A DNA stretch of 64,000 nt, filler included, from Stramenopiles sp. TOSAG23-6 (taxonomy: Eukaryota), in the NCBI GenBank assembly GCA_900128565.1. It is 15 parts of 15 records of this genome, joined end to end, with 100 filler letters (N's around TTAATTAATTAA, not from the genome) between each part and the next. Parts side by side here need not be neighbours in the genome. Positions count along the whole stretch, not along the records: positions 51,429 to 55,595 come from LT637245.1; positions 55,696 to 59,858 come from LT637246.1; positions 59,959 to 64,000 come from LT637284.1; 12 more parts are not named here. One strand, given 5' to 3'. Below, one piece after another: positions 25,846-64,000 of the stretch. Below the pieces are notes generated by a model. The model did no database searches and had not been told where the DNA came from. It worked only from the letters and a program-made list of their open reading frames with translations. Positions within the stretch are counted from its first letter, which is position 1. Every line of letters begins with the position of its first letter. A program made the translations under genes and the position numbers.

Positions 25846-27374
25846 TATATGAGACGCAAAGTCAAGATGGTAAAAACAACCAAAGATTGAAAATGATGAA
25901 ACCCGACTATTTACGTTATCCAAGTGATGTTTTTAAGCTTCAAACATTTTCTGATCTCATTCAGATGTGTCTGTCACATTGTGGTGAAAAAGGAAAATTC
26001 ATTTTTATAAAGTATTTGAATGACTTTATGACGTTGTTGTGGAGTTGTGATTCAAATCAATTTGAATGTGATGAAAACAAAGTAGGGTTGATGAAAACTT
26101 TGTTGCTTGTTGTCAAAAATGCACCAGAGATAATTATTGAAACAATTCTGTCCCATACCTCTGTATGTTTTATTTTATTTTTGTATGAATTTTTTTTTCG
26201 TACGAAATTTTGTACCTAACAAATTTATGTTTTTTTTTTTGAAATATTTTTTCACAATACCTGATTCGAATCAAACATTTGCTGCTCGACTTTTAGATTA
26301 TCATATTTGTTTACGAACTTCAGATTTTTTTAAGAAATGGAATAATAATTTTTTACCAGTAGTGTATGAAATCATGTATGTTTTTTCATCATGAATTTCA
26401 AAATATATTATTTCTGTATGAAATTTCGTACCTAAACAAATGTTTTGACCAATTTTCAAATATTTTTTCACAATGTAGGTATCTATTTTGTCAGCACAAA
26501 CCCGATGAAGAAGGTTCCTTTTTCTCTGCACTGTCCAACCATAAAAATTGGCATTGGGCATGTACTAATATATGTATACTCTATTCCATTCATGTACGTT
26601 TTCATAATTGATTTTTGTACTAATTTCGAATTTATTTTTTTTTAATACAAAATGTTGTACCTAACGATTTTTTAAAACCAAAAAAAATAATATTTTCCCT
26701 CGATACATCATCCTTTACCGTGTGAAATGATGTCAAATATTTGGAATATTTGTGCGACACGAAGAGTTGGATTTCGTATGAATTATATAACAAAAATGGG
26801 AAAGTATTTGAATGATAACCCAAAACAAAGTTATTTTTCTCCTTTATTGCCATGTTTAAAAACTATTGCAAGAGATAGTGATGATTTTATGCGTATGTAT
26901 GAGCATGGCATACTCCCTTTTGTATTTGACTTTATTTCTAAAACTTTAAAAAGAATTGGAGACAATTTTTTTTCTCCAGATGATTTGAATGAAAATTTTG
27001 CATCTGAGCTGAAAAAGACAAATATAGCTATATCAATTATTGGAACTCTTCAACGTAATATTTGTGACGTTTTAAGTATTGATAAAGTATCTTCATCTAA
27101 TGATAATAATAATAATAATGATAATAATGATGCTGTGACTGCGAATATAGAATACATCAATGATTTAAAGGAAACCATTCTGAGAAACAAAACAATTCAG
27201 AACTTTCATCTGCATACGAAAATATTACACGATATGATGTCAAAATTAAATGATGAACAGCGAAGCATTCCTTTTATTTCTTCATGGATATCTCAAATAG
27301 ATCAAATTGATCTTCAACGTCAGTGTTGGATTCGAATATGTAAATATTTATCAATGTGTAACCCTAAACCCTAA
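25846..27374 (+). CDS. Unknown helical protein, 3' part; exons 25846-26162, 26263-26375, 26479-26593, 26709-27374
   Basis: Single continuous frame after removing three family introns ending CT, AG and AT. Confidence 0.65.
26163..26262 (+). mobile_element. Introner-like intron GT..CT
   Basis: CT direct repeat at both junctions; in-frame join. Confidence 0.75.
26376..26478 (+). mobile_element. Family intron GT..AG
   Basis: Ends CACAATGTAG; in-frame join. Confidence 0.75.
26594..26708 (+). mobile_element. Family intron GT..AT
   Basis: Joins YSIH-HPLPCE. Confidence 0.75.
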
Positions 27375-38390: not shown

Positions 38391-38707
38391 ATATATTTTG
38401 GAAAAATATTTCAAAAAAATTCTAAAAATATTTGTTAGGTACAAAATTTCGTACGAAAACCAAAAAAAACAATTTTTTTTTTTTTTTTTTTGTGTAAAAA
38501 AAAAAANNNNNNNNNNNNNNNNNNNNNNNNNNNNNNNNNNNNNNNNNNNNTTAATTAATTAANNNNNNNNNNNNNNNNNNNNNNNNNNNNNNNNNNNNNN
38601 NNNNNNATTATGAAAAAATATTTCAAAAAAAAAAAACTAAAATTTGTTAGGTACAAAATTTTTTTACCAAAAAAAAAATAAATTCAAATTTTGAAATGAA
38701 AACGTAC

Positions 38708-39676: not shown

Positions 39677-40044
39677 ATCACTTTAAATTTTCAAAAAAAA
39701 GAATAAAGCTGCACTACTTACCTAATGATGACTGAAAGGAAATTCACGTTAAATCCAATGACAAATATAAACCGACAATTGAACTGTACAAAGAAAATTG
39801 CTGCTCTTTCTCTCTCCACAGAAAAAATGACGGAGCACTCCACACTGGCAGGCTCGTGCAATTTCAGGCTCAAAGACGAGGAGCATTGATTGATGTCGGA
39901 TGTCATATTTTGACTGCTGTACCTACAAATTCGAAATTCACATGAATCATGTCCTACATTTCAATAAATGTTTAAAATTTATTTATCAAGAATGTACTTT
40001 TTTTATTTTAAAATGGCGCCAGTACTTTAATGTATTCTTTCATG

Positions 40045-42780
40045 TTACAATTTTCCTTTATTTTTCATGGTAACTACTGTATTCCATTCATCTGTACCTG
40101 GACATAATCTATGGTAACCTATTGAGGCTGTTGACGTACTTACATCAGAGTGACACATACCTGCTTTTGGCATTTCCCCAAAAGGGCGAGGTATTTCTCC
40201 ATGTAATACATCAACAATATCTCGTGCCAAATTCATTCCAATTGCTGCTTCACTCGCTCTTCGAGACTTGCGTTGTCCCTTACGGCGAATCGCCCATTTG
40301 TATAATAAATTTCGGTTGAATGGCATAGGTGCAAGTAATCCTATAGTATCCTTTATCAAGGCTGACTTAATTCGCTTATCCAAATCATTTTCAATACCAA
40401 ATGATGGTGAGGCATTCACTTCAAGTAACCATGGTCGAAGTGAAGAATCAATAATTATATCATAACCATACACTTCGAAACAATTTGGTTGGTGTTTGAT
40501 TAAATCATCAGCACAAACTAGTGACTTTAAAATCAATATATGTATATTTTTCTGTAACTTTTGTGTATCAATATTTAATTTTTCTAGGCGTTGTAAGAGG
40601 AAACTATATGAAAGTTTACTTCCTCCTACTTCTGAGGATGGTGCAGTCATAAGAGGTGTACATGATATTGTGCTACGGTTTTGATAAAAGCTTTCAGTAT
40701 TTTTCGATTCTTTTGTCCTTATCTCCGGTTTTTGTTGTACCGATGAATTTGTAAGATGCATTCGAAGATCTTTGAGGTAATCCCTATTTATTGGTTCCTC
40801 AGAGTCGTCTGGATCTTCGTTACCAATTTTATACTTGACCGTTGACATTCTCGCAAAGCCTTCTGTGTAGATAAAAGCCTCTAGGGGTTGGAATGATGTA
40901 ACAAGTACATATAATCTCAGATCGAATTTGTATCCATCAATCAGTAATGGTTCATCAATATATTGCTGTACCACATGTATTTTGGAAAAATATTTCAAAA
41001 TATTTTTTGTTAGGTACAAACTTTCGTACGAAAAAAAAATCATACAAAAAAAAACATACAGCTGCCTCGGAATAGCGTAGTGTTGGACTATCTGTAATTC
41101 TAATTCCTCTTCCACGACTCATCAGTGCGGGCTTGACAATCCAAAGATTTTGTCTTGTAACATTTACACTGCTAGCGTTTGAACGTTTATCGTCCATCAC
41201 ATGTTGTGAATGGATTAATTGATCCTTTCGCTCAAAAAATGCTTTTGTAAATGCGTTATATTCTGTGGGTAAAATAAATGTGGGTGGCTGTATCGAAAAA
41301 GTAGATAATACACCCCCCATTTTCCAATATCTCGCAAGTGTTTTACACAATAAATCTTTTCTTGTCAGGCAACGAGCACCAACAAAGCGATGAACACGTT
41401 GCCAAGGCAAAAGTTGATCAAATGCAAGACGTGGTTCCTGGAAACACCACAAGATATTCCAAGCCATCCGAGAACTATACGGTGTGCTCAAAGAAGTCAT
41501 TGATTTAGCAGACATACTTTTGTAAGTATTGTATGTCTTAGTGTCATCTTTAGGGTCGGTCTTGAATTTAAACTCACGAGTAGACTCATCTGGAAGCTCC
41601 CGCATTCCTAGTGCATTAAACTGCTCATGTACTAGACTATATACTTCAGATTTTCGTTTCGATACAACAAACCATAGTTGTTGATTACCCAACTTTTTCG
41701 ATAAATTCATCATTTTATTATTGTAATGGTATCTATTATGCTTACTTTCGTCGTTTGTCGTTTTATTTAGATTATGCAAAAACTTTACACTACTCAGAGA
41801 TTCTTCGCCATTATCTTTGGAGTAAAATTCATTATATCCACCGCTAACTCGAATACTACAAAATTTATTGTAACTTTTCAAAGAGGATTCGCTTGCCCAT
41901 GGCTTATACGTATTCTCTATACTATTCCATATCTTTAATAATTCCCTTTCAGCACTTTCGCTATGCCGTCGACTAGTCTGTTTATTCTGGCCTTGTTTTA
42001 AATTTTTCATCAATAATGAGGGGCGGAGCAACTCGATTTCATTAGGCCAAAGTTTTGAAAGTGGAATAATGTAATTGTCACTATCATAATCTATTTTATC
42101 TTTCTGTGTATCATTCTTGACGTTTTTAGTGAATAAAATATCTTTGCTGATTATCATGCGTTTTGGTGGTAACTTATCAAAATTTGTCACACGTTTTATC
42201 GCATTTTCGTCATTAGAACCTACTACATTCCCTATTGTCACTTGATTACTTATACCATCATTTTCATCTAGAATGAAAGATCCAGAAGGTGCGAAATTTG
42301 CGCCTCGCTTATCATCAGTATTCAATGTACTTACAGCATGCAATTTATCCTTACTATCGCTTTGGTTCACCTCAATTGAATGAGGTTCATGTAGAAATTG
42401 TTCTTCATTCTTATTTATTTCACAACATTCATCATCTTCAAGGTTACCCTCTTCATTCTTATTTATTTCACCACATTCATCATCTTCAAGGTTACCCTCC
42501 GGAGTCCAACCATCGTACCAATCATCAACTTCAGATTCTTCTTTGTCGCAGAATTCAATATTTGTTTGATCTAATTCTATGATAGGATCTTTTTGTACAC
42601 TTGAGCTATCATTTATATGTTTATCGAGTTCAACTACTGTATTATTATTCGTACTATTTGATTCATCCAATTCTATCATAGGATTATTTTGTGCATTTAT
42701 ATTTTCATGATGCTCAATTACTGTATTATTATTCGAGCTATTTGATTCATCTGATTCAATGATGGGATTATTTTGTGCAT
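40045..42780 (-). CDS. Tubulin-tyrosine-ligase-like (polyglutamylase-type); intron 40975-41059
   Basis: WIVKP..SRGRGI, VVQQYIDEPLLIDGYKFDLRLYV, HLTNSS, FEVYGYD, WLLEVNASPS. Confidence 0.93.
40975..41059 (-). mobile_element. Introner-like intron GT..AT in TTLL (duplicate at 45249-45333)
   Basis: Joins YSEAA-VVQQYIDEP. Confidence 0.9.
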
Positions 42781-42981
42781 NNNNNNNNNNNNNNNNNNNN
42801 NNNNNNNNNNNNNNNNNNNNNNNNTTAATTAATTAANNNNNNNNNNNNNNNNNNNNNNNNNNNNNNNNNNNNNNNNNNNNATTATGAAAAAATATTTCAA
42901 AAAAAAAAAACTAAAATTTGTTAGGTACAAAATTTTTTTACCAAAAAAAAAATAAATTCAAATTTTGAAATGAAAACGTAC

Positions 42982-43950
42982 ATGAGCACGCACTAGTTGA
43001 TGTGCACAATAAAACAATTCACTTTTAAGACCCAGATCCACCATTGTTGATATTGTAACAGGGAGATTACGGTATAAAAATGGATCGCGTTTGCGAACTT
43101 CAATAGTAAGAGCGTGAGCTTTGGTTGTATCATGTCGATAATATAGTTGTTCAGCTTCAGCAGATAAAATATCAGCATTATCCGCTAAACCCCACTCCGA
43201 ACGCAGTTTTTGGAAATGGACTTCCACATCATCAGTAGGATTGTATTTAAGGATTCTACTGCGATAGATTAGTTTTGTTAACTTGGCTACTGGTGCTAAT
43301 TCTTCACTATTTGTTTCTGTACCGAATGGTAAAGAAGTTAATAATTCGTGTTCTTTACTCTCTTTCAGCATTTGTTTATCCACAAGTTGTTCAAAAGCAT
43401 CATAACAATGCGCATCACAACGCATAGCGTGTACAAACCAAGCTGCAGCTCGACTACGATTTTCTGCTGCCTCCAGAGCTTTAGCCTTTAGAGTGCATAG
43501 TTGTGCAATTACATTAATTTCTTCACCCACTACTGCAGGATGTGTTCGAACGAGTGATTGCAACGCAGATCCAGGTCCTGAACCTTCAGGTGTGTCTGGT
43601 ATGATACGATCTAGTAACGATAATGCTTCTTCATTCATACCCTGTGCGAGCATACACTGCGTAGCTAACCGGCAAAAGTGTGGATATCCAGGCTGGAGGA
43701 GATATTCATATTTACCTAACAAATATAAGGCTTGTTCATACTTGTTACTCCGGAAATAGGCATCTGCAAGTAAAAATACATCTGACGGCTCACCAGAAGA
43801 CATTGTGACGACTTTATCTGCATAGAAAATTGCACCAGCGAGCGAATGTTGTGACAAGCAACTTTTCGCAAGAGCACGATATTTGACACAAGCACTTACA
43901 ATATTAGGAGCCACTTTGGGGTTTGACCATTGAGACGTACTCTCGGACAT
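42982..43950 (-). CDS. CDC16: CDC16 first exon (duplicate contig)
   Basis: Translation identical to 38708-39676. Confidence 0.85.
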
Positions 43951-44318
43951 ATCACTTTAAATTTTCAAAAAAAAGAATAAAGCTGCACTACTTACCTAAT
44001 GATGACTGAAAGGAAATTCACGTTAAATCCAATGACAAATATAAACCGACAATTGAACTGTACAAAGAAAATTGCTGCTCTTTCTCTCTCCACAGAAAAA
44101 ATGACGGAGCACTCCACACTGGCAGGCTCGTGCAATTTCAGGCTCAAAGACGAGGAGCATTGATTGATGTCGGATGTCATATTTTGACTGCTGTACCTAC
44201 AAATTCGAAATTCACATGAATCATGTCCTACATTTCAATAAATGTTTAAAATTTATTTATCAAGAATGTACTTTTTTTATTTTAAAATGGCGCCAGTACT
44301 TTAATGTATTCTTTCATG

Positions 44319-47054
44319 TTACAATTTTCCTTTATTTTTCATGGTAACTACTGTATTCCATTCATCTGTACCTGGACATAATCTATGGTAACCTATTGAG
44401 GCTGTTGACGTACTTACATCAGAGTGACACATACCTGCTTTTGGCATTTCCCCAAAAGGGCGAGGTATTTCTCCATGTAATACATCAACAATATCTCGTG
44501 CCAAATTCATTCCAATTGCTGCTTCACTCGCTCTTCGAGACTTGCGTTGTCCCTTACGGCGAATCGCCCATTTGTATAATAAATTTCGGTTGAATGGCAT
44601 AGGTGCAAGTAATCCTATAGTATCCTTTATCAAGGCTGACTTAATTCGCTTATCCAAATCATTTTCAATACCAAATGATGGTGAGGCATTCACTTCAAGT
44701 AACCATGGTCGAAGTGAAGAATCAATAATTATATCATAACCATACACTTCGAAACAATTTGGTTGGTGTTTGATTAAATCATCAGCACAAACTAGTGACT
44801 TTAAAATCAATATATGTATATTTTTCTGTAACTTTTGTGTATCAATATTTAATTTTTCTAGGCGTTGTAAGAGGAAACTATATGAAAGTTTACTTCCTCC
44901 TACTTCTGAGGATGGTGCAGTCATAAGAGGTGTACATGATATTGTGCTACGGTTTTGATAAAAGCTTTCAGTATTTTTCGATTCTTTTGTCCTTATCTCC
45001 GGTTTTTGTTGTACCGATGAATTTGTAAGATGCATTCGAAGATCTTTGAGGTAATCCCTATTTATTGGTTCCTCAGAGTCGTCTGGATCTTCGTTACCAA
45101 TTTTATACTTGACCGTTGACATTCTCGCAAAGCCTTCTGTGTAGATAAAAGCCTCTAGGGGTTGGAATGATGTAACAAGTACATATAATCTCAGATCGAA
45201 TTTGTATCCATCAATCAGTAATGGTTCATCAATATATTGCTGTACCACATGTATTTTGGAAAAATATTTCAAAATATTTTTTGTTAGGTACAAACTTTCG
45301 TACGAAAAAAAAATCATACAAAAAAAAACATACAGCTGCCTCGGAATAGCGTAGTGTTGGACTATCTGTAATTCTAATTCCTCTTCCACGACTCATCAGT
45401 GCGGGCTTGACAATCCAAAGATTTTGTCTTGTAACATTTACACTGCTAGCGTTTGAACGTTTATCGTCCATCACATGTTGTGAATGGATTAATTGATCCT
45501 TTCGCTCAAAAAATGCTTTTGTAAATGCGTTATATTCTGTGGGTAAAATAAATGTGGGTGGCTGTATCGAAAAAGTAGATAATACACCCCCCATTTTCCA
45601 ATATCTCGCAAGTGTTTTACACAATAAATCTTTTCTTGTCAGGCAACGAGCACCAACAAAGCGATGAACACGTTGCCAAGGCAAAAGTTGATCAAATGCA
45701 AGACGTGGTTCCTGGAAACACCACAAGATATTCCAAGCCATCCGAGAACTATACGGTGTGCTCAAAGAAGTCATTGATTTAGCAGACATACTTTTGTAAG
45801 TATTGTATGTCTTAGTGTCATCTTTAGGGTCGGTCTTGAATTTAAACTCACGAGTAGACTCATCTGGAAGCTCCCGCATTCCTAGTGCATTAAACTGCTC
45901 ATGTACTAGACTATATACTTCAGATTTTCGTTTCGATACAACAAACCATAGTTGTTGATTACCCAACTTTTTCGATAAATTCATCATTTTATTATTGTAA
46001 TGGTATCTATTATGCTTACTTTCGTCGTTTGTCGTTTTATTTAGATTATGCAAAAACTTTACACTACTCAGAGATTCTTCGCCATTATCTTTGGAGTAAA
46101 ATTCATTATATCCACCGCTAACTCGAATACTACAAAATTTATTGTAACTTTTCAAAGAGGATTCGCTTGCCCATGGCTTATACGTATTCTCTATACTATT
46201 CCATATCTTTAATAATTCCCTTTCAGCACTTTCGCTATGCCGTCGACTAGTCTGTTTATTCTGGCCTTGTTTTAAATTTTTCATCAATAATGAGGGGCGG
46301 AGCAACTCGATTTCATTAGGCCAAAGTTTTGAAAGTGGAATAATGTAATTGTCACTATCATAATCTATTTTATCTTTCTGTGTATCATTCTTGACGTTTT
46401 TAGTGAATAAAATATCTTTGCTGATTATCATGCGTTTTGGTGGTAACTTATCAAAATTTGTCACACGTTTTATCGCATTTTCGTCATTAGAACCTACTAC
46501 ATTCCCTATTGTCACTTGATTACTTATACCATCATTTTCATCTAGAATGAAAGATCCAGAAGGTGCGAAATTTGCGCCTCGCTTATCATCAGTATTCAAT
46601 GTACTTACAGCATGCAATTTATCCTTACTATCGCTTTGGTTCACCTCAATTGAATGAGGTTCATGTAGAAATTGTTCTTCATTCTTATTTATTTCACAAC
46701 ATTCATCATCTTCAAGGTTACCCTCTTCATTCTTATTTATTTCACCACATTCATCATCTTCAAGGTTACCCTCCGGAGTCCAACCATCGTACCAATCATC
46801 AACTTCAGATTCTTCTTTGTCGCAGAATTCAATATTTGTTTGATCTAATTCTATGATAGGATCTTTTTGTACACTTGAGCTATCATTTATATGTTTATCG
46901 AGTTCAACTACTGTATTATTATTCGTACTATTTGATTCATCCAATTCTATCATAGGATTATTTTGTGCATTTATATTTTCATGATGCTCAATTACTGTAT
47001 TATTATTCGAGCTATTTGATTCATCTGATTCAATGATGGGATTATTTTGTGCAT
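44319..47054 (-). CDS. TTLL gene (duplicate contig)
   Basis: Translation identical to 40045-42780. Confidence 0.85.
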
Positions 47055-51428: not shown

Positions 51429-51528
51429 ATGTATTTTGGAAAAATATTTGAAAAAAAAAACTAAAATTTGTTAGGTACAAAATTTCGTACGAAAAAAAAA
51501 TTCGCATTTGAAAAAAAATAAAACATAC
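51429..51528 (-). mobile_element. Introner-like intron GT..AT at a contig end
   Basis: Near-consensus copy. Confidence 0.75.
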
Positions 51529-52234
51529 ATATATTATAAGGATGATTTGATAGAACTCGACGGTATTCAATAATTGCATTAGGAAAATGATTCATAGCAA
51601 TCCAAGAGCGACCCATTTCTAATGGTACATAGAGCGTAGAATTCTCACAAGCTCCACAATCCGAGACGTCCACTTGACATAAGAAATATAGAGCTTCGCC
51701 AAATCTACCTTGGTTTCGAAGTATTAAACCTAGATGATAAGCTGCATCAGAAACTCGAGGACGAGTAGATTCTTTCAAAGCAGCTTTTAGACATAATTCT
51801 GCGTCATCTTCATCTCATACAGAAAATGCAATTAAACCTTCAGAAAGTAGTTCATAAAATTTAGCTCCAATAGAATTTCTTTTTTGTTGGGAAGATTCTA
51901 CTATATTTTGTCTCAAATGAACCATCTTTTCGGCATAACTTTGAGGTGAACTATTTTTTGAAGCAACTCTCACAGAATTCATCATTTTTGCCCAGCGACC
52001 GCCAATTTTTTTATCGGTTTTGTTCGCACGTGCTTCTTCAAATGGATCACACACTTCAAACTCTTGCGTCTCTTTCTCGGAAACAACAAGATATTCAAAC
52101 AGTCGGAGGGCATCGAGAGAAGTAGGCGCAAATCCCTTTACCTTATTTTTCCCGTAGAAGAAAATGTTTTTCATTTTTTCTGATGAAAAGAGTATACTAT
52201 TGTTTTGAGCTTCCTGTGTGTTGTTTTTTTCCAT
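51529..52234 (-). CDS. TPR-containing protein, 3' truncated, in-frame TGA at 51815-51817
   Basis: AAYHLGLILRNQGRFGEALYFL and LEMGRSW..AIIEYRRVLSNHP TPR units. Confidence 0.65.
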
Positions 52235-52731
52235 CTTTCGAAAGGCTTGGCTAGACTATGAACTCCACAGTTTCGGAAATGATGCCACCTTTAATTATTT
52301 AGTGTAGTGACTGATTTACCCCGCTGAAAATGACATGAATACCCTCTTTTTTGATGTATGAAAACTCCATTTTTCGCGTTAGAATATAAACACACACCAA
52401 GTGCAGTAAGTGCGGTACGCTATGGTGCCCCGTATGAGAAGAAAACTGTCTTTTATTAGTAGCCAGATATACAAATAGTTGTATATCAAGTACGTACAAT
52501 TATTGCAAAGTCTTTTTTTTTACAGTTTCAGTATAATTGTTTCGCTGTCAAATCGGAAATAAAAAAATCCATCAAAATGTTCAAAAACATCAACATCAAC
52601 ATCGACATCTCCTTCAGGAAGAACGAAGACTTCCCTTCAGAGTTAGACGTAGAGAGTCTTCTGTCGAGTCTTCTATTGTATCGCGAGCCAAAGAAATCTT
52701 TGTGCATAAAGGAAAACTTCATTTTTGACAA

Positions 52732-53109
52732 ATGCTTGGTTTCATTTATAGTCTTAATGATAAAGTTCGGTATGGCATAGTTGCGCTTCTGATGCTTATT
52801 CAATTTCTTCCTCCACTGAAACCAGTATATCGACTATTACCTAACTGGGTGTATACTGTGACTGTCTTATCTCTTTTATACATGAAAGACCATAATGATC
52901 ATAATGAAGCAAATAATGATAATGATAATGTAACTGGTCCATCTGATCTAGAAAGGCTTTCCAATTCTGAAATAAGTAAGATGTCTTCAAAACAGTTAAT
53001 AAGAGAACTTAAAAAAAGGAAAGTTCCTTGTAACCACTGTGTTGAAAAAAAGGATTTACAGACATTGTTAACAACAGTTGCAGGAAGTCAAAAGTCTAAA
53101 AACGATTGA
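52732..53109 (+). CDS. Small membrane protein with an ARMET_C/SAP-like domain
   Basis: TM segments then MSSKQLIRELKKRKVPCNHCVEKKDL. Confidence 0.6.
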   Translation: MLGFIYSLNDKVRYGIVALLMLIQFLPPLKPVYRLLPNWVYTVTVLSLLYMKDHNDHNEANNDNDNVTGPSDLERLSNSEISKMSSKQLIRELKKRKVPCNHCVEKKDLQTLLTTVAGSQKSKND

Positions 53110-53279
53110 AAAGGAAACTTGATCCAATTATCCTACTAGTATTAGATGCATGAATAATTTTGCGGGTCCACATTTTGTTATAGTGAATGAATTATCCTTT
53201 TAGAATGAATAATAAAACGAGTCATTATTTATTAGAAATACGTTAAAAAAAAAATAATTCGAGGATATTAAATTTAATT

Positions 53280-54016
53280 TTATTTTGCTCGTCGGGTTTT
53301 CCCTTCATACACGGAAACATCTCTCATTTTACTTTCATTTTTATTTCGACGCCTTGACGGACTTTGAGCTATTTTACTTTCTTTACCTTCAGCTTCTCTT
53401 TTAACTCGACAATTTTTCACTCGACTTGAGGCTTCACTCTTCATCACATATTGTAGAAAAATATTTGAAAAAAACGTTAAAGTTTGTTAGGTACAAATTT
53501 TCGTACGAAAAAAAGTTTAGGTAAAAAAATGAAATGAAAACGTACATTTCCACAAAGGTTTCATAATCTTGTCTTGCTGCGATAATGTTAAACATAGTCT
53601 TATTATCCTCTGTATCGTGAGTTTTTGTCATTTCTTTAACCCATTCTGCTTCTGTGTAATTATTCTCCTTCAAGAATGACGCAATAAATTCCTCAAGTAA
53701 TGTCTCAAAGTCTTTGTGAATAAATGACCATTCCAATCTATGCTCCTCTTCTTTCTCTTCTGTAGCATTGTAAAAGTCGTCACAGTACTTTTCATAAAAG
53801 TCTCCCAATATGCCTCCTATGTGTTTATTATAGTATGGATATAAATTTTGAATCTGTGGGTAATGAATATAAACAGAAAAATGAAATATGAGTACAACGA
53901 AGTTTGATGAGAGAATGTCTTGTATTAATGAGTGATACAGTTGAGAACGAAAAATGATAAAGATCACTCACAATTCCCTTCTTTGGTTTAAATAAGGCTT
54001 CTAGCTCTTTCGACAT
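53280..54016 (-). CDS. BART-domain protein (ARL2BP/CFAP36-like); exons 54016-53972, 53853-53546, 53445-53280
   Basis: EEHRLEWSFIHKDFETLLE..QDYETFVEMM after splicing. Confidence 0.8.
53446..53545 (-). mobile_element. Introner-like intron GT..GT
   Basis: Joins FVEM-MKSEA (BART motif). Confidence 0.8.
53854..53971 (-). other. Canonical GT-AG intron unrelated to the repeat family
   Basis: GTGAGT...CCCACAG; joins KKGI-IQNLYPYY in frame. Confidence 0.8.
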
Positions 54017-54289
54017 GCCTGTGAATGACTTATATGTTTCGATTTGGTGATAAAAATGTAGAAAGTATCTTTCGTGTAATACAACTCTCGATTTAGATTG
54101 AGATGATGCTAAATTGCGTTTGGTTCTCTGTTATATAACGAAATTTAGGTAGGGAGTTTCTTGAAAAATGAAACCGTTTGACACACATAAAAACCTCCGG
54201 TAGACACTTTTGCCTGTATGTGTTCTACCATTTGACCAGTAAGAATATTTGTAAATCAAATTGCCAGAGTTTCACGATATTATTAAATA

Positions 54290-55595
54290 ATGAGCGGTGA
54301 TGAGGAACAAGGCGAAGAGCAAAATTCCCTGGAAGCTCGAATTGAACTGTTGGAATTCCAACATGATACTGGGCAAATTACAGACGAGCAGCTTGAACGA
54401 CGGGTGGATGCTTTGGAGAGAGAGATTACAAATCAAGCTGTCTCCAATGGTATCCTTCCATCTGATTTACAGGAAGTAGTTTGTGATGATGACGAAACTA
54501 TTGATGATGTCATTCCTACTGCGGAAGTGATCGTCCCTGTTAAAGGTGGCATTAAGAAAAAACAATCAACATTTAGGCGAAACCTCACGTATATGGATAC
54601 AAACAACGACGGAAGAGTGTCGATGTCTGAGTGGGGATCTGGAATTTCTCGAATTATTTCTCATCACGATAACCGCTTGCACCAAAATTCTAGACTTAAA
54701 CCGAATCAGAAAGTTATCACTGACTTGCCGTTGTTGGAACAAAAAATATTTCATTTACGAGGTTGGTTATGCTTTTCTTTCCAAATATTTTTTGTCTTTT
54801 TAGGTTGTTTTATGATGCAATATTTGAAAGAAGAAGAGAAAATTGAAGCAACAGATAAACTCAAAGTGATTGGTTTATTAGGAACACTGGGCATTCCTTT
54901 TTTTATGGGTTTGTTAACTATTTGTCGGAATACATACTGTCTTTTAATACCTCTATTTCTAATTTACACCGTGTACGAAACCTTCATGTACGTTTTCATC
55001 ATGAATTTCAAATTTAATATTTTTTCCGTACCAAATTTTGTACCTAAACAAAAAAGATTTTTTTTTTTTTTTTACAATACATGCTTGGTGTGATGAACTG
55101 GAGCACACACTCTGGGTTCATTCAACAAATCTTATTTTATCAGTTTATTGGGGTCTTCTGTACAGCATTTATTTCTACTCGAATTGAAGTTGACGATACT
55201 ACTGGTAGGGAAGTACGTTTTCATTATGAATTTCAAATTTATTTTTTTTTCGTACGAAATGCTGTACCTAACAAATTTCGAATTTAATTTTTTTTACAAT
55301 ACATGAGGTGTTGAACTCTTATTTTGCGGTAGCATGTGGCTGGGTTTGTACTTGGCCTGTAGCTTTAATACTTAATGGCATTAAACCTGACTTTTTTGCT
55401 GGAGATAGTACATCAGAAGGTTTGGGTGGAAATAGTTACAAAGTTGTTATTCTCGCTATAGTAGTAGCTGGCGTGATTATGTACGTTTTCAAAATTAATT
55501 GTTTTTACTGACATGTTTGTTTCATACGAAATTCCATACCTAACGATTTTTTTTTTCGGTAAAAAAAAAAAAATATTTTTTCACAAAATATGAAC
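54290..55595 (+). CDS. Bax inhibitor-1/TMBIM-like membrane protein with an N-terminal EF-hand-like loop, 3' truncated
   Basis: DTNNDGRVSMSEW; multiple TMs including PLFLIYTVYETFMLGV; three family introns. Confidence 0.55.
54988..55082 (+). mobile_element. Introner-like intron GT..AT
   Basis: Joins ETFM-LGVM. Confidence 0.8.
55213..55304 (+). mobile_element. Introner-like intron GT..AT
   Basis: Joins TGRE-EVLNS. Confidence 0.8.
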
Positions 55596-56466
55596 NNNNN
55601 NNNNNNNNNNNNNNNNNNNNNNNNNNNNNNNNNNNNNNNTTAATTAATTAANNNNNNNNNNNNNNNNNNNNNNNNNNNNNNNNNNNNNNNNNNNNTTTTC
55701 ATTGTGAATTTCAAATTTATTTATTTTTTTTTTTTTTTTTTTTAGTTTGAAATTTTGTAATTAACAATTTTCGATTTTAATTTTTTTTTTAGTTCGAAAT
55801 TTTTTTCCTTAAAAAAAAAAAATTTTTTTTTTTTTTTTTTGGAAAAAAAAATTTCATAACAAACGAATTTCAAATTGTAAGAATATTTTTCATAAGACAT
55901 GCTTCACTTTGGGAAAATGATCCAAATTCATTTGTTAGTAAAGCAGAATATTCTGGGGTTGGAGAATATGTTTGTTTTTTTCATTTCAATTTCAAATTTA
56001 TTTTTTTTTGTACTACTAAAAATTTTTACTCAAACTTTTTTTTTTTTTTCGGTAAAAAAAAAAAAAAAAATATTTTTAACAATATGTACACTCAGATCGG
56101 TAGGTCCAGATTTTATTCGTTCTGTTCTTAATACAAAATCTCATTTAGGGTGTAGACGAAGAGCATCATCCTGGGGATCTGCTGCTGCTGTACTTGCTAT
56201 GAAATCTAATATGAAAAAGGTAAGCAGTATTGAAAGTGAAAATGCTAAAATTGAAAGTAGAAAGATTTTTTTATTGGTTTTAGACACGATTGTATGTTTT
56301 ATTTTTTTTTTTTAACAAAGAAATCGAATTTTTTTTTATAGTAAATTTTGTACCTAACAAATTTTTTTTAGATTTTTTTCAAATATTTTTCCAAAATACT
56401 TTTTCGTACGAAATTTTGTACCTAACAAATTTAAGTTTTTTTTTTCAAATATTTTTCACAATACAT

Positions 56467-59400
56467 GTACTTTATATCGTGTTCTTTACTATAGAAAATC
56501 TCTATGGGCTTATGTAGAAAAAAATGCTATACATAAAATGAGTATAATAGATAAACAACTCAGACCTCTTTCTACTGCATTGGCGCATGTACGTTTTATT
56601 TTTTTTTTTGAATTTCTAATTGTTTTTCATACGAAATTTTGTACCTAACGAATTAAAAAAATATATTTTTTCACAATATATGGAACTTTATCAAGAGTCG
56701 GTAGACCTTTTGGTTGTGCTATGTTGCGATTACTTCCAAAAAAGAATTGGAAAGGTTTGCGCCCAATAATGAACCTTTCATCGTGGAACAATACTGCTTG
56801 GCCGAAAGCAATGCGACCCATTTCAAAAAAAAATAAGAAATTACCTTTCTTTTCTTATCGACCACTACCCATCAATAAAGTTTTATTAAAAGTTTTTGAT
56901 GTTTTAAAATATGAAAAGAGTAAAAAACCAAAATTGCTCGGTGCTACTGTATTTAGTATTGCTGATATGTACAACCGGTTAAAATCATTTGTAGAACTAT
57001 GGCGAGGATTTCGTGTAGCAGATGAAAAACCTTTTGGTGATGGACAAAATGGAAAGAATAAACCTTTATACTTTGTTGTTGGTGATGTAGCGAAATGTTA
57101 TGATACAATTGTACGTATTTGTCATTTCAATTTCGAACATTTTTTTTTACTATGAAAATTTCGTACCTAACATTTTTTTTTTAAAATATTTTTTTACAAT
57201 ACTAAATCAAAAGATTTTATGGAAACTTTTAACAAAAAAGGTTTTGAAAAGTGAAGAATATGTCATTCATAAATATTCAGTCTTGTTCGTTTTCAAAATT
57301 GAATGTTTTACCTAAATTGTTTTTTTCATACGAAATATTGTACCTAACGATTTTTTTTATTTTTTTTTACCGAAAAAAAAAAAATATTTTTTCACAATAT
57401 TTGCGATCTTCAGAATCTAAGAATAAAAATAAAATTGCAAAGTGTAGCAATAAAGATGAAATCGTGACTGATTTCAGACGTTTAGCTCTACCTAGATTAT
57501 CAAGTACACTTCAATTAGCTACTGAAGTCTTTCAAAATCATCCTCTTAAAAGACACAAAATTAACCCTAACCCTATCCCAACTGGAAAAAGACACAAAAT
57601 TAACCCTAACCCTAGGGTTAACCCTACTCGAAAAGATCATACAATATCAACTTTATTAGCAAAATCTACTGAAAAACAAAATGAAAAAATACACAAAACT
57701 GAAAAATGTTTTGATATAAAGCAAAGTAAACAAAAAGGGAAAATATTTGTCGATGGTATTGTATGTTTTCATCATGAATTCCAAATTTATTTTTTTGTAC
57801 CAAACTTTGTACCTAACAAATTTCGAATGTAAAATATTTTTCACAATACTTGTACTTTGCATTTGAATTTCATTTTTTCTTTTTTTTTTTTTCACCAAAA
57901 CATATTTCATACTTACAAAAAAACAATGTTTTACATATTTTTGCACAATATTTGTTCATGGATATGTGAAACGAAAAAATATCTTAAAATTAATTCGTGA
58001 ACATTTGAGAAGAAATATGTATNTTTTTTTTTTTTTCAATTTTGATTTTTTTTCGTACGAAATTCCGTACCTAACAAATTTTACCAAAAAAAATATTTTT
58101 ACAAAAACATAGTACGATTAGGTACAAAATTCTATCAGCAAATGGTCGGTATTCCTCAAGGTTCTGTACTATCCGCTTTATTATGTGGATTATATTATGG
58201 GCAAGTGGATGATGCGTTAGTCAATGCTGCAATGCAAAACATGAAAAAATACACGAAATCAAAACATAAATTTGATGAGGACGAAATTATTTCAATTGTA
58301 AAAGAAACAATGATGAATAGATTAGGTAAAGAAAATGACAGTGACGATGAACTAATGGGTGGAATTTCTTTATCCAATGACAATAAAAATAATGAAAATA
58401 ATGAAAATAATGAAAATAATGAAAATAATAGTTTTAATCATAAAAAAAAGAAATTTGGTACGGATTGTAATACAAAAAATAATAATAAAAAAAAAAGAAA
58501 GAGTGAATGTCTTGAACAACATTACACATACAATACTAATACTAATAATACGAATAATACGAATAATACTAATAATACGAATAATACGAATAATGTTTGT
58601 GTGACATCTACAACATCATCTTTTCAAAATTCGTTTAGCAAGAAATTTAGTACGAAATTTGGTACAGGTTCAACTTCAAATTTGCTACATATTGATGATG
58701 ATGATTTATTTGGTGGAATTCCTCAAATGAATTGGATAAAAGATGAAAAGAATAACAATAACGACACGAATTCTGTACTTTTACGTTTAATTGATGATTT
58801 CTTATTTGTAACGCCTTCATTACAACTTGCAGTAGCTTTTGTTCATAAATTACATGCTGGAGATAGAAAATTAGGATTTCATGTACGTTTTCAGAATTCA
58901 TTTCAATTTTTTTTTTTTTTTTTTTTTTNGTACAAAATTGTATACTTAACAAAACAAATGAAAATTTGTCATATTATCCTAAAAGTAAAGGTCAATTCGA
59001 GTAAAACATGCGTAAATTTTGATGTATGTGTAAAAATCACTGACCCTAAAGATAAAACAAAAACAATAAAAAAAAAGATAAAAAATATAGAAAATAACAC
59101 ACTTAGTTGGTGTGGTTTAGAAATTAACACAAAAACATTTGAAATAATTACTGATTTTTCAAGGTATCGCATGTTTTCATTGTGAATTTCAAATTTATTT
59201 ATTTTTTTTTTTTTTTTTTTAGTATGAAATTTTGTACCTAACAAATTTCGAATTTAATTTTTTTTTTACAATACATGCGATCAATCGCTTCGTTCTGCGA
59301 TTCAATATAATTCAGGACTCGGACACAAACCTGGCCAGACGATTATTGATCATCTAAAAAATTTCATTAAACATAAATGTATGTTTTATCTTTTTTCAAT

Positions 59401-59858
59401 TTCGATTTTTTTTTTTGGAAAGTTTTGTACCTAACAAAGTTTAATTTTCTTTTTTTTGAAATATTTTTCCAAAATACATGTCAAAAATTATTTTTTGATA
59501 GGTGTATCAATAAAATATCAACAATGTTACAACATATATGCAATGTGTTGATTATTGCAGCAATGAGATTTCATCTATTGTATCGAATTTTACAACGAAA
59601 AAAAATCAAAAGAACAAAACGAAAAAAACGGAAAAAAAAAGGAAATATGAAAAAGGATACTTTTACTAAAAATGAAAAGAAGAATGAAAATTCAAATTTC
59701 CTTTTTAGCATATTATTGGAAATTAGCAAATACACGCAAATTTTAATCCGAAAACGATTTTCCCCAGCATCATCTTTACAATACCAAAAATCAAATCGAA
59801 ATGAAAATAATGAAACAAATCGAAATGAAAACAATAAAACAAATTCGTTTCCATCGCA
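56467..59858 (+). CDS. TERT: Telomerase reverse transcriptase, partial; exons 56467-56588, 56682-57110, 57205-57284, 57403-57760, 57954-58018, 58111-58882, 58991-59168, 59277-59378, 59480-59858
   Basis: T motif RVLYYRKSLW, LRLLPK/GLRPIMNL, motif A DVAKCYDTI, B' GIPQGSVLS, C LRLIDDFL, E SWCGL, CTE AMRFH. Confidence 0.95.
56589..56681 (+). mobile_element. Introner-like intron GT..AT in TERT
   Basis: Joins the T-motif exon to motif 1. Confidence 0.85.
57111..57204 (+). mobile_element. Introner-like intron GT..TA in TERT
   Basis: Joins CYDTI-NQKIL (motif A). Confidence 0.8.
57285..57402 (+). mobile_element. Introner-like intron GT..TT in TERT
   Basis: Joins KYSVL-RSSE; TT direct repeat. Confidence 0.75.
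57761..57953 (+). mobile_element. Two tandem family introns (57761-57851 and 57852-57953), both GT..TT
   Basis: Joins IFVDGI-VHGYVKR. Confidence 0.75.
58019..58110 (+). mobile_element. Introner-like intron GT..AT in TERT
   Basis: Joins HLRRNI-VRLGTKFYQQMVGIPQGS. Confidence 0.9.
58883..58990 (+). mobile_element. Degenerate family intron GT..AG in TERT
   Basis: Joins LGFH-VNSSKT (motif D). Confidence 0.8.
59169..59276 (+). mobile_element. Introner-like intron GC..AT in TERT
   Basis: Joins DFSRYR-DQSLR. Confidence 0.8.
59379..59479 (+). mobile_element. Introner-like intron GT..AT in TERT
   Basis: Joins KHKC-QKLFFD. Confidence 0.85.
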
Positions 59859-59958
59859 NNNNNNNNNNNNNNNNNNNNNNNNNNNNNNNNNNNNNNNNNN
59901 NNTTAATTAATTAANNNNNNNNNNNNNNNNNNNNNNNNNNNNNNNNNNNNNNNNNNNN

Positions 59959-61467
59959 CATGTATTTTGGAAAAATATTTGAAAAAAAAATTGTTAGGTA
60001 CAAAATTTCGTACGAAACGAAAAAATAAATTCGATTTTTTTGTAAAAAAAAAAATAAAACATACATGTACATGTCCTGTACCCCCCCATCGTTCTTTGCA
60101 GGCCATAGGATAACGAGTATTTAATTGTTCTGACGTCAGAGACGCAACAATGTCTAAATGAGCCTTTGCACACTCATTAAGATCCGAGAATCTTAAACCA
60201 GTCAGTCCAATCTCATCCGAATTGGATAGTCTACTACGTATTTTTGCATTTTCAGCTAGATTGGGTGCAATCAACGAGCCAGGATTGGCAACAACAGCCC
60301 CATCATAATGACGAAGAACGCGTGCACGACAGGGTAGTTGATGTGGATTTGATGCAATGAGATTTTTTTCTTTTACTGAAATACATTTAGATTTTCCATT
60401 TTTTTGATAATTTTGTAAAGCTACAGAATATCTTCCAGAAGTATTATTAAAAGCCTCAACTAATCCTATTTTGCCATTGTATTGAGCTGCGCCTACAAGT
60501 GAATGCACTTTCACTTCTAAACCATTCGCTAAAGCACCACTGAGCGCATCAGAATCAGGAATATGACGACCGAAACCACTACCAGACATCATACCAAATA
60601 AAGAATTAAAACCCAATGGTCCTGACCCGCCTCCAACCCTTCCTCTTTCAGATGTACTTGAAAAACCAAGATAATTTTTAGGATCACCAGATCCACTGAC
60701 TTTATCTTCTCTTCGACATGCAGCTGCAAGTACAATTCTACGGATTTCTGCATTCGGATGCTTAATTGCAGCACCAACATGAGTTCTCAAATCATTACGA
60801 CCACCAGTGCAATGTATATTGAATGTCTGCGTCATGTCTACAGAATTAGCACAATTATCACGATCTTCATCGACGAAAACTGACAAGAGGAAATATCATG
60901 TATTGTAAAAAATATTTTAAATTCATTTTTTTTTGTTAGGTACAAAATTTCGTACAAAAAAAAATAGATTTGAAATTGGAAATGAAAACGAACACTGTGA
61001 CTTTGACCCACTGAATTTGCAGATGATAGATCGAGTGCAGATACTTTGACAGGTAATTTTGGAATAGGTCCTGGTTGCAATGTTGGTGTATTTGGTTTCT
61101 TATCCGGTGTAAGGGATAAGGTTTCCAGCTCGGCCAGTGTTGGAACATCAAAAGTGAAAAGAGAGTTGTCCACTGCATCCTCAAAATCTTCATAGTCATC
61201 ACTTGATTGAGGCTGTGAAGTAGAGAATTTTTTTGGCTTTTTTTCACAATCTAGAATGTTTGATACCTCAATACCCCGACTCTGCAAATCTTTTACAGTG
61301 CGTTCCGAGCGTTTCAGGCACTGTTTATGTGTTTTTCCATCCACTACCGATGCTATATTCTGCCAACGCTCACGACACTCAGAAGCACTCGCACCAGGTA
61401 CAGGCGGATAAATTTTATACGCTGCTTCAAGTTGTGATTGCTGGAGTGGGTTCCATTTGGAACCCAT
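59959..61467 (-). CDS. SANT/Myb-domain protein with an SH3-like domain, 3' truncated
   Basis: W.PLQQSQLEAA..YP..ERWQNIASVVDGKT.KQC; VHSLVGAAQYNGKIG..GRYSV..SVKEKNL. Confidence 0.65.
59960..60064 (-). mobile_element. Introner-like intron GT..AT
   Basis: Near-consensus copy at a contig end. Confidence 0.75.
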
Positions 61468-61797
61468 GAGTAGGCAAATGTAGAGCAAAAAAAACTACTG
61501 CTCTTTGTCTCTATGATGAGCCTATATGTATTGCCTACCTAGAGTAGTCAGTCTAATATTATTACCTTGATACGCAAAAAAGCTTGAGCTTGCTGCTTTG
61601 CTTGAGTTTCGTTTTTTTTGATGTGATGTTTTTGACCAAACGGCAAAACAGAAACAGTCAGTCGATCATGACACGTGTTACGACGTGTTAATACAACAGC
61701 ATTTTAGTACCCAATGCACACACTAGAGAGAGCTCCCATTATTCTCATAGAGCGTAGTAGTTATTGTGCAAATCCCTTGTATTTTTGTATAGAGCGT

Positions 61798-63459
61798 ATG
61801 TATAATATTACAATTGTTTTTTGTCTTCACTTGATCACTCCGTTACTGACGTGGGGCTCATATATTCCCTTGCCGGTACTAACGGTAGCACCACCTCTAA
61901 ATGAACCAGAAGAGTTCAGTGATCAATTAATAGGACGTACAGCCTTCAGAGGTCCTAATATACATGGGTTTACACCTGTAAGAAAATGGAAACAAAACGA
62001 TTATTTTGGTCTCGATCAAAGTGCCGTTCAAGCCAAAATAAAGCTTAAAATACAAATTATGAGGAGTATTTGGTATGAAAGAAATCTTGACGATTTCTTT
62101 GAGTTAAAAATGGAAACAACAGGCAAAGAGAAAAAACCTTTTCTAAACAATCCTAATGAAACAAGTATTCCTATTCTTAGTGATGAAGGTGGAGAGCAGA
62201 AAACTGTGGTGAATTTTGTTGTTGGGGCTGCTTTTGTGAACAACCCTCTCGAAACAAATATGTACGTTTTTATCATGCATGTTAAATTTATTTATTTTTC
62301 GTACGAAAATTTGTACCTAACGATTTTATTTTTTAAATATTTTTTTACAGTACATTCCTATCATTTCTCGTTCACATCGAAGTTACGTGGAATTTCGTAG
62401 GACAGAAGCTTTCGAAAAGTTCAAAGGTTCTATGAGTAAAGTACCCGATTATAACATTGGACAACTGAAACCGAAATACCAATATTTTCTAGATGATATT
62501 GACTTTATTGAAATAGCTCTTTTTAAAAAACATTCCGTGTTTCATGCATGTTTTCCATTATGAATTTCAAATTTATTTTTTTTCGTACGAAATTTTGTAC
62601 CTAACGATTTTTTTTGAAATATTTTTTCANNNNNNNNNNNNNNNNNNNNNNNNNNNNNNNNNNNNNNNNNNNNNNNNNNNNNNNNNNNNNNNNNNNNNNN
62701 NNNNNNNNNNNNNNNNNNNNNNNNNNNNNNNNNNNNNNNNNNNNNNNNNNNNNNNNNNNNNNNNNNNNNNNNNNNNNNNNNNNNNNNNNNNNNNNNNNNN
62801 NNNNNNNNNNNNNNNNNNNNTTCACAAAAATGGACTGATAATATGAATGTATGTTTTATTTTTTTTTTTTTAGCTGACAAAAAAATAATTTTTAAAATGA
62901 AATATTTTTTCACAATATATTCGCATCAGAACGTCTTAAAAATCATAAAACAATCGTAGAATTAGCAGTTGTACCATTTCCAGAAGCATTTCAGTTTGCT
63001 TCAAAAGAACTTAGAAATGATGTACGCTTTCACAATTTATTTCAAATTTATTTTTTTTTCATACGAAATTTCGTACCTAACGATTTTTTTTACAAAAAAA
63101 TATTTTCACAATACATGCTCCGTTTGTATTAAAGATAATGAAACAAATGACATTTTATGAACATGGTTTAAGTGAAAAAAACAAATTTCCTAATTTGCAC
63201 CTCTATATTTGGAATTTAGCTTCAGAAAGTGTGAAAAATTATGTCCCAATTGTTACGCTTACAATCATAAAACATCCAGAAATATTTTCATTACTTCATA
63301 AAGAAACTAAACAAAACAAAGATGTAACGGATGTATGTTTTACTTTTTTTCAAATTTGAAATTTTTTTCGTACGCAATTTTGTACCTAACGATATTTTTT
63401 TCAAATATTTTTCCAAAAAATATGCTTTACATGTAATTAATCCATGTAATGTAATGTAA
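61798..63459 (+). CDS. Unknown protein with DUF4116-like repeat, several family introns and a gap
   Basis: FASERLKNHKTIVELAV..AFQFASKELRND; most exon joins in frame. Confidence 0.5.
62262..62355 (+). mobile_element. Introner-like intron GT..AT
   Basis: AT end keeps frame; the CAG 5 nt upstream leads to a stop. Confidence 0.75.
63022..63116 (+). mobile_element. Introner-like intron GT..AT
   Basis: Joins ELRND-APFVLK. Confidence 0.8.
63333..63423 (+). mobile_element. Introner-like intron GT..AT
   Basis: Family motifs; short terminal exon follows. Confidence 0.65.
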
Positions 63460-63772
63460 GATACTATAATCCCATTAATATAATAATGTTATTTGTACCG
63501 GAATTTGTGTGACCGTAGAGTACACATTTTAATTTTTAAAACACAAAATAACTGTAAATATTTCAATTGTATCATTTAATTATAAATGTAAAAATATTGC
63601 TATTGAAATGTAATTTATTTTGACTTATTCATTTTATAATTTACACAAAATGTATATTCTTGTTTCATTATTTTAAAATATATAGCCTACATTTCAAATT
63701 ACTGTGATTTTATTATTCTTCTTCAGAAGATGAATTTGATGAAAATTCAGGAAACGAAACTGAATCATTCTC

Positions 63773-64000
63773 TCAAGACCCTGGAGCTCCCATCTTTCTC
63801 AACCATTGTAATACTTTTAAGTGACCATTTTGAGCTGCTTCACGCCATGTATTTTCATCCCATGGACAAGGTGGATTTTGACCTCTTACCCATTTCAATA
63901 CTTTTAACTCACTGTTTCCAGCTGCATTTTGACACGTCTCTTCACCCCAAGGACAAGGTGGATTTTGACTTCTTACCCATTTTAATACTTCTAAGTGACC
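63773..64000 (-). CDS. 3' end of an ankyrin-like repeat protein (not in the ORF track)
   Basis: GHLEVLKWVRSQNPPCPWGEETCQNAA..LKVLKWVRGQNPPCPWDENTWREAAQNGHLKVLQWLR. Confidence 0.85.
   Translation of the reverse strand, partial: GHLEVLKWVRSQNPPCPWGEETCQNAAGNSELKVLKWVRGQNPPCPWDENTWREAAQNGHLKVLQWLRKMGAPGS

Follow-up and report, generated by a model that had tools for sequence, protein, structure and literature searches.

The introns described here form a family of short, near-identical sequences that begin with GT and end, in most copies, with AT. They lie in a 64,000-nucleotide stretch of DNA (the window) from Stramenopiles sp. TOSAG23-6, an uncultured marine protist. The window consists of about 15 separate contigs, each roughly 4.2 kb long, which are sorted by length and connected by linkers of the form N44-TTAATTAATTAA-N44 (for example, at 55596-55695 and 59859-59958). 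The contigs are merely joined, so that genes flanking a linker are not genomic neighbours. For the same reason the span 53446-62355, to which a preliminary description of this DNA referred, crosses three unrelated contigs (51429-55595; 55696-59858, which carries TERT; and 59959-64000). The DNA is AT-rich, with about 30% G+C. A eukaryotic 18S rRNA is represented at 8545-9155 on the minus strand by its 5' 600 nt (RF01960, 477 bits), and this fragment, which by impression is stramenopile-like, was the only match in an Rfam scan of the window. Other eukaryotic and flagellar genes encode CFAP58, TTL, LRR proteins and a DEAD helicase; an atlas search with CFAP58 yielded no taxonomic information of use.

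The family repeat is about 85-140 nt long, typically about 100 nt, and double units reach 193 nt. Its consensus reads GTAYGTTTT ... (TCGTACGAAATTTT)GTACCTAAC ... T-rich ... AAATATTTTTYCAMAATAY, followed by two more bases. A logo of 34 copies gives G33 T33 A29 Y33 G30 T32 T32 T34 T33 at the 5' end. The best-kept 8-mer of the family is TACCTAAC, which contains the core CTAAC and occurs 53 times in the window against 1.14 expected, nearly always inside the repeat. In the same logo the 3' block from -21 to -1 is conserved without gaps in every copy; it has runs of T at -16 to -12, and A is kept at -9, -7, -6 and -4 in 31-33 of the 34 copies. The family is inserted in the sense orientation. After one copy of a duplicated contig had been removed, 36 of the 43 matches to the core motif were in sense to the flanking open frames, two were antisense and five ambiguous. 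The host genes of the 36 curated introns include TERT, BART, Aa_trans, topoisomerase II, DEAD helicase, CFAP58 and TTL. Many near-identical introns are thus present in unrelated genes of one genome, as is expected of introners, and they are removed from mRNA: two are joined in RNA contigs, a third is compatible with such contigs, and the removal of the rest is based on reading frames or homologues.

The RNA contigs were compared with one contig of the window, 51429-55595, and came from three runs of one study (X1, X2 and X3). The public RNA that shares words with this region is from seawater metatranscriptomes only. In the gene at 54287-55595, a 704-nt RNA contig (X1 record 6) joins 54667-54988, 55084-55212 and 55305-55481, and the first joint, 54988|55084, recurs in X2 record 13. 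CATG is present at both borders of the intron 54988-55082, giving five equivalent placements. The joint from 55212 to 55305 skips 92 nt with GT..AT ends (both=1) and was found in runs X1 (side 129) and X3 (side 46). A placement shifted by one base would give TA..TG, and an AT-AC placement is excluded because AA precedes that GT. Past 55481 the X1 contig continues with ACCGTG and the window with GAAC and then N, which is compatible, apart from one differing letter, with removal up to the second base past the conserved box AATAY. The BART family intron had no joint in runs X1-X3, which was counted as evidence neither way. Joints between 514xx and either 534xx or 555xx, whose sides are 20-35 nt long, were set aside as probable repeat chimeras. 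Separately, hundreds of RNA contigs match the family sequence itself at 90-99% likeness (51429-51567 and 55460-55595), with a summed depth of up to 31371 over 51429-51567 in run X2. Such depth indicates that these poly-A libraries contain the family in very large amounts, whether as unspliced RNA, as excised introns or as DNA.

The register of the 3' end was determined from reading frames. The 5' border was placed at GT, and k is the number of bases past the 5-nt box that have to be removed to keep the flanking frames open. Thirty-nine copies were curated, three of which have N right after the 3' end, leaving 36 testable. A value of k = 2 (mod 3) was required by 29 of these, where chance would give one third. 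Four of the seven initial misses also fit on inspection. At 26376, k = 2 gives an AG end, the longer frame downstream having run on through the following intron; at 50226 and 58019 the AT end is in frame once the anchors are corrected; at 60993 a GT located 2 nt further upstream gives k = 2. The earlier proposal of a cut 2 nt past the AATAY box therefore holds directly in 29 of the 36 copies and in four more after inspection. The distance between CTAAC and the intron end does vary, as had been noted: in single units it ranges from 33 to 55 nt, measured from the A of CTAAC. No single rule other than GT plus two bases past the box accommodates every copy. The occurrence of GT...AT introns with a fixed 3' register in this DNA is confirmed.

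The final set of 36 introns omits the second copy of the duplicated contig and the copies with N inside or beside them (4301, 12905, 17033/16945, 32152, 38435, 38653, 51528, 58883, 60064 and 62549). Also omitted are 29650, 37717 (which has a plausible AG end by frame only), 37993, 56292-56466, 62849 and two odd pieces at 17216 and 17449. In the gene at 61858-63430, no chain of exons was obtained across 62549-62920, a region that holds a 191-N gap and in which all exons tried have an in-frame stop.

Protein homologues were used to examine the copies that do not end in AT. For the Aa_trans transporter, variants with k = -1, 2 and 5 were aligned to five environmental homologues of about 50% identity. 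At the AA end of 18765-18905, k = 2 was gap-free and had the top score in all five, and k = -1 and k = 5 each needed a gap; the k = 2 product, GSHA^MMPEE, is identical to two of the homologues. Two AT-ended introns of this gene gave k = 2 in 5/5 homologues each. At the TT end of 17665-17851, k = 2 was gap-free in the four homologues that cover it, with a score tied with that of k = -1. The TERT test had 138 homologues, and the counts use those spanning each junction. At the TA end at 57204, k = 2 was top in 99 of 123 (k = -1 in 16, k = 5 in 4, ties in 4); at the TT end at 57953 it was top and gap-free in 68 of 73, and at the AT end at 58110 top in 85 of 104. The remaining junctions gave no decision: k = 2 was top in 5 of 11 at the GT end at 56087 and in 13 of 29 at the AT end at 56681; at the TT end at 57402 the counts were 8 (k = 2), 7 and 7 of 25, with 3 ties. 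These alignments support the same 3' register for the odd ends AA at 18765, TA at 57204 and TT at 57953. A database search with the BART protein found no homologue.

The end dinucleotides of the final set are AT in 27, TT in three, GT in two, and CT, AG, TA and AA in one each. All strings on which the idea of a free acceptor had been built are present in the DNA (AATATGT at 53446, minus; AATACTA at 57204; AATATTT at 57402, 57953 and, minus, 17665; AATACCT at 26262; AATAAAA at 18765, minus). To call the dinucleotide nearly free was nevertheless an overstatement, given 27 AT ends in 36. In the 34-copy logo, T is found at -1 in 31 copies and A at -2 in 27, and the box positions -7 to -4 match the consensus in 30-33; the last two bases are therefore somewhat less constant than the box, yet not free. 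Nor could the AATAY box be singled out as the positioning signal. Seven copies have a changed box (GAGAC, ACTAC, GATAC, AAAAC twice and AAAAT twice) and keep the final AT, and no copy has an insertion or deletion within the last 21 nt, so that the determinant cannot be assigned to the box, to the terminal AT or to the remainder of the block.

The part of the earlier reading that stands firmly is that the 3' site is not found by scanning for AG. An unused AG lies between CTAAC and the intron end in 10 of the 39 copies, among them 54988-55082, which RNA shows to be spliced past it. An AG at 58111-58112, 2 nt past the end at 58110, would break the TERT frame and lead to a stop after 33 codons. 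As judged by frame, the CAG at 62348-62350 gives a stop after 28 codons, and with the AT end at 62355 the frame stays open for 69 codons.

The signals at the other positions are those of U2-type introns. The 5' ends of the final set are GT in 35 and GC in one, with a GTRNGT-like extension (A at +3 in 29, G at +5 in 30 and T at +6 in 32 of the 34 logo copies), and most single units have, 33-55 nt from the end, a CTRAY-type branch-like motif, CTAAC, with a pyrimidine tract after it. The terminal AG of U2-type introns is found in only one of 36, against AT in 27. The U12-type 5' motif RTATCCTT is absent, with ATCC in none of the 36 copies, and no U12-type branch motif (TTCCTTRAC, about 10-20 nt before the 3' end) is present either, TACCTAAC being 33-55 nt away. 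We infer that the major (U2-type) spliceosome removes these introns and that the 3' site is read from the position of the block. That this is an introner-like U2-type family, in which the place within the conserved 3' block and not AG sets the 3' site, is given a probability of roughly 0.6.

In the proposed mechanism each copy would carry its own signals: a yeast-like 5' site GTAYGTTTT, the branch-like TACCTAAC whose core CTAAC is the putative branch point, a T-rich stretch of variable length, and the ungapped 3' block AAATATTTTTYCAMAATAY plus two nucleotides, by consensus AT, with TT, GT, TA, CT, AA or AG in the same register. Splicing would link the exon before GT to the base after those two nucleotides. 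The position of the block could be read by a lineage-specific 3'-site reader, comparable to the divergent U2AF of Fritillaria, or by a ruler, and the identity of the last two bases would not be what is read.

Several points weigh against this interpretation. The copies are young repeats, and the conservation of the block may reflect shared descent and not function. The RNA proof is confined to AT-ended introns of one gene, in three runs of one study. The libraries contain DNA or pre-mRNA, since the one clear non-family GT-AG intron, in the BART gene, is unspliced in two low-depth RNA contigs (X2 record 11 and X3 record 18); the same runs show the family introns of the neighbouring gene spliced. 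This BART intron, at about 53842-53965 on the minus strand with borders GTGAGT...CACAG, has by a by-eye reading to be removed if the BART start codon is to be connected with the domain. Three copies depart from the rule or could not be judged: 29650, near a gene end; the tandem 56292-56466, with a net k of 1; and 62849, which has a tiny upstream exon beside the 191-N gap. As far as the frame by itself is concerned, k = -1, 2 and 5 are equivalent, and the ends GT (53446 and 56087), CT (26262) and TT (57402) rest on the frame only, with k = -1 and k = 5 allowed. Protein tests fix the net length removed and not the exact borders: GT..TT gives the same mRNA as TT..AT at 57402 and 57953, and GT..AA the same as TA..AG at 18765.

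The strongest competing explanation, itself unlikely, is a branch-proximal ruler of the U12 kind. The true branch A would be located in CAMAAT, at -9, -7 or -6, the cut would follow it at a set, short interval regardless of the bases, and TACCTAAC would serve another purpose or function in some copies only. Relative to the block the end is indeed fixed, whereas TACCTAAC lies at varying distances from it, and the A residues at -9, -7, -6 and -4 are kept in 31-33 of 34 copies. U12-type introns are described as tolerating varied 3' dinucleotides in Physarum (10.1101/2020.10.12.336362). The ruler is kept alive by two introns without TACCTAAC, 18765-18905 and 17665-17851, which by the homologue test are correctly removed at the same register. 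Copies lacking TACCTAAC, however, carry other CTRAY-like strings (TACTAA, CTGAC and GTAAC, read by eye), the 5' site is GTAYGTTTT and not RTATCCTT, and the CTAAC-containing TACCTAAC is better kept than any other 8-mer. A branch 6-9 nt from the end would also be unusually close for a major spliceosome.

It is improbable that the variety of acceptors mirrors insertion targets, the element proper being GTAY...AATAY and duplicating a 2-bp target, usually AT. Known introners often recruit one splice site from a target-site duplication (TSD), as described in 10.1101/2020.10.14.339549, and three non-AT ends equal the two nucleotides before GT (CT/CT at 26163; TT/TT at 57285 and 57761), where shuffling gives 0.53 (P=0.008). 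Over the whole set, however, 20 of the 36 copies have the same dinucleotide before GT and at the end, against 17.0 expected (P=0.07), 10 of the 14 copies whose upstream dinucleotide is not AT still end in AT, and six of the nine non-AT ends differ from the upstream dinucleotide. Signs of transposition are limited to inverted ends of about 6 nt and the TSD signal of the three non-AT cases. Insertion by a route that leaves no duplication would account equally well for the sense-only orientation and for the absence of a general TSD.

Structure-driven, non-conventional splicing is a still weaker candidate and very improbable. The inverted ends (AT|GTAT with ATACAT) would pair and present both junctions, and the sequence at the cut would be secondary. 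Pairing of intron ends is described in hemistasiid diplonemids (PMC12621601) and in Amoebophrya (PMC7789003). Here the terminal repeat, AT|GTAY against ATACAT, is about 6 nt long and is paired in 83.3% of cells, compared with 12-56% when the partner is slid. The preliminary description had likewise considered that pairing with the 5' GTAY end might set the 3' site, and this idea was not borne out. Shuffled pairs reach 82.2 +/- 1.0%, with 105 of 500 shuffles attaining the observed value, so no covariation was detected between the ends, and RNAalifold predicted no end-to-end pairing, only a weak GUAYG-UGUAC helix next to CUAAC (-0.26 kcal/mol). Moreover, GTAC in half the copies breaks the sixth pair, and, in contrast to non-conventional introns, the family strongly conserves the 5' GT and CTAAC.

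Two further explanations have very little in their favour. The first is that AT is the sole true acceptor and that copies with odd ends reflect faulty assembly or are defective introns of genes in decay. It would agree with the fragmentary assembly, its many N gaps and duplicated contig, and with RNA proof for AT ends only, but the odd ends are in conserved open genes whose homologues fit at the predicted register (AA 5/5, TA 99/123, TT 68/73). Least probable of all is excision from DNA, as of the internal eliminated sequences of ciliates: RNA contigs free of the element would look alike, but DNA excision does not require the sense bias (36 of 43, two antisense), the 5' and branch signals are spliceosomal, and the family is very abundant in poly-A RNA contigs (X2).

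The family resembles the introners of Micromonas, Aureococcus, dinoflagellates and fungi in being made of many near-identical short introns that carry their own splice signals into unrelated genes. Introners are described as typical of marine protists, with 3' sites that are AG and either borne by the element or recruited from a TSD (10.1101/2020.10.14.339549; PMC12130899). The 2025 survey took AG and AC as 3' sites and dropped families with unfamiliar sites that lacked RNA support (PMC12130899). In contrast, the 3' end of the present family is AT, and no general TSD is seen. A literature search found no GT-AT introner, although the supplements of introner surveys may list such a family. Searches of the literature for the motif strings returned primers and unrelated text only, and one scan of JGI metagenome contigs with the 21-nt family core gave no match.

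Non-AG 3' ends are shared with Fritillaria borealis, in which massive removal of non-GT/AG introns is ascribed to a U2-type spliceosome with divergent U2AF paralogues that recognise non-AG ends; there, less than 10% of introns are GT/AG and the 5' ends are non-canonical as well (PMC13326754). In the present family the departure is confined to the 3' end, with a conventional 5' GT (35 of 36) and branch motif. The non-canonical introns of Fritillaria reportedly originate from miniature inverted-repeat transposable elements (MITEs), a result that is said to be due to Henriet et al. in 2019. The introner elements of Amoebophrya are repeated non-canonical introns with short direct repeats across their borders and inverted end repeats of 8-20 nt; the description reports no clear terminal signature, a U1 snRNA that was not detected and more than 50% G+C (PMC7789003). 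The present family differs in its clear GT..AT signature, inverted ends of about 6 nt and a G+C content of about 30%. A tolerant 3' dinucleotide and an end set by distance from a conserved motif are also features of U12-type introns. In Physarum, GT-AT makes up 17% of 1,014 non-canonical U12-type introns, whose branch motif is 9-12 nt from the end (10.1101/2020.10.12.336362); neither such a branch motif nor RTATCCTT is found here. Finally, the non-conventional introns of euglenids and diplonemids have non-AG ends that can pair, and are described as lacking a conserved GT and complementarity to U1 (PMC12621601; PMC6221363; PMC12501133), whereas GTAYGT and CTAAC are strongly conserved here. Unconserved borders and extensive end pairing, which mark that class, were not found in the family, which has only the 6-bp inverted end without covariation. 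None of these systems, as described in the sources cited, joins a conventional 5' site and branch motif to an AT-type, position-defined acceptor on an introner.

Few signals in eukaryotic genes are as constant as the AG at intron ends, and the known large-scale exceptions (Fritillaria, Amoebophrya and the euglenozoans) alter both intron ends together. A family in which only the acceptor differs, the 5' site and branch motif being conventional, isolates the question of how the 3' site is chosen. Natural variants for its study occur by the dozen in 64 kb: AT, TT, GT, TA, CT, AA and AG ends, changed boxes and nearby AGs. It is tempting, but for now doubtful, to go further and suppose that the second splicing step of an otherwise ordinary-looking major spliceosome (GTAYGT, CTAAC and a U tract) no longer reads AG, and that the block of about 20 nt of a mobile family sets the 3' site as an acceptor code of its own, with any dinucleotide tolerated. 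Sense-only insertion without a general target duplication would also agree with spread through RNA, by reverse splicing, rather than as transposing DNA. In practice, nearly all genes of this organism will be mis-annotated by gene finders that insist on AG. P0001 (320 aa), a database protein from the window itself, is taken to be such a gene call, reading into the intron 18765-18905, because it matches transporter exon 1 at 100% over 99% of the exon's 304 aa and because its length is close to that of the open frame from exon 1 into the intron (324 aa).

Table 1. Introns of the family in the window, with their 3' ends and the basis of each assignment (k, bases removed past the box; ^, exon junction).
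Position	Strand	Feature	3' end	Basis and remarks
17665..17851	-	Family-type intron, same contig as 18765, without TACCTAAC	TT	Homologues, score tie
18765..18905	-	Aa_trans transporter intron, without TACCTAAC	AA	Homologues
26163..26262	+	Family intron	CT	Frame k = 2 only; CT also precedes GT
26376..26478	+	Family intron	AG, at usual register	k = 2 joins exons consistently with next intron
53446..53545	-	BART (ARL2BP-like) intron; gene has Pfam BART match	GT	k = 2: FVEM^MKSE, 55 open codons; k = -1 and k = 5 also open
54988..55082	+	Family intron, GT..AT	AT	RNA contigs and frame k = 2; AG 26 nt before end unused
55213..55304	+	Family intron, GT..AT (or TA..TG)	AT (or TG)	RNA joint, X1 and X3
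55481..55591	+	Family intron	AT	Downstream exon lost in N gap; RNA compatible
55970..56087	+	TERT intron	GT	Frame k = 2
56292..56466	+	TERT tandem (double) unit		Net offset k = 1
56589..56681	+	TERT intron	AT	Frame k = 2
57111..57204	+	Intron after TERT motif A (..CYDTI^NQKIL..)	TA	Frame k = 2 and homologues
57285..57402	+	TERT intron, 5' GTTCG	TT	Frame k = 2
57761..57953	+	TERT double unit removed as one intron	TT	Homologues
58019..58110	+	Intron before TERT motif B'	AT	k = 2: ..RRN^IVRLGTKFYQQMVGIPQGS; homologues
59169..59276	+	Family intron, GC 5' end (GCATGTTTT)	AT	Open reading frame translations on both sides
59379..59479	+	TERT intron	AT	Frame k = 2
60898..60995	-	Family intron, GT..AT	AT	GT 2 nt upstream of degenerate GTTCG used; downstream 80+ codons open only with that GT combined with k = 2
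62262..62355	+	Family intron	AT	Frame only; TTTTTACAG ending at 62350 unused
63022..63116	+	Family intron	AT	Frame k = 2
63333..63423	+	Family intron, box AAAAT	AT	Frame k = 2

Some copies are joined or altered. The double units at 3385-3563 and 57761-57953 are removed whole at the usual register. At 56292-56466, a candidate micro-exon of 4 nt, TTTC, between two introns that both obey the rule would fit the reading frame. In two copies, at 59169 and about 62549, GCATGTTTT replaces GTATGTTTT at the 5' end, and these would be GC..AT introns; the former is in frame under the rule and the latter adjoins the 191-N gap.

Two features of the assembly touch the counts given above. The contigs 38607-42780 and 42881-47054 are both 4174 nt long, have identical motif matches at a constant offset of 4274 and look like one contig entered twice. 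The contig 17185-21375 has about 55 nt common to both ends (17185-17240 and 21320-21375), consisting of TCCAAACGAATTCAT, the start of a family intron and a run of A, and this points to a repeat that was collapsed or to an artefact of circular assembly; one of the antisense family matches arises from these repeated ends.

A telomere-like 13-mer, AACCCTAACCCTA, occurs 13 times in the window against 0 expected, mostly within open reading frames. The sites listed are 468, 642, 672, 979, 2166, 8251, 18125, 18166, 33118, 38217, 57563 and 57602. The two inverted copies at 18125-18178, separated by 28 nt, lie in a stretch of about 60 aa that is inserted relative to the transporter homologues, and the repeat is also present on one RNA loose end. 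It may represent a second small mobile element or an unrecognised type of intron.

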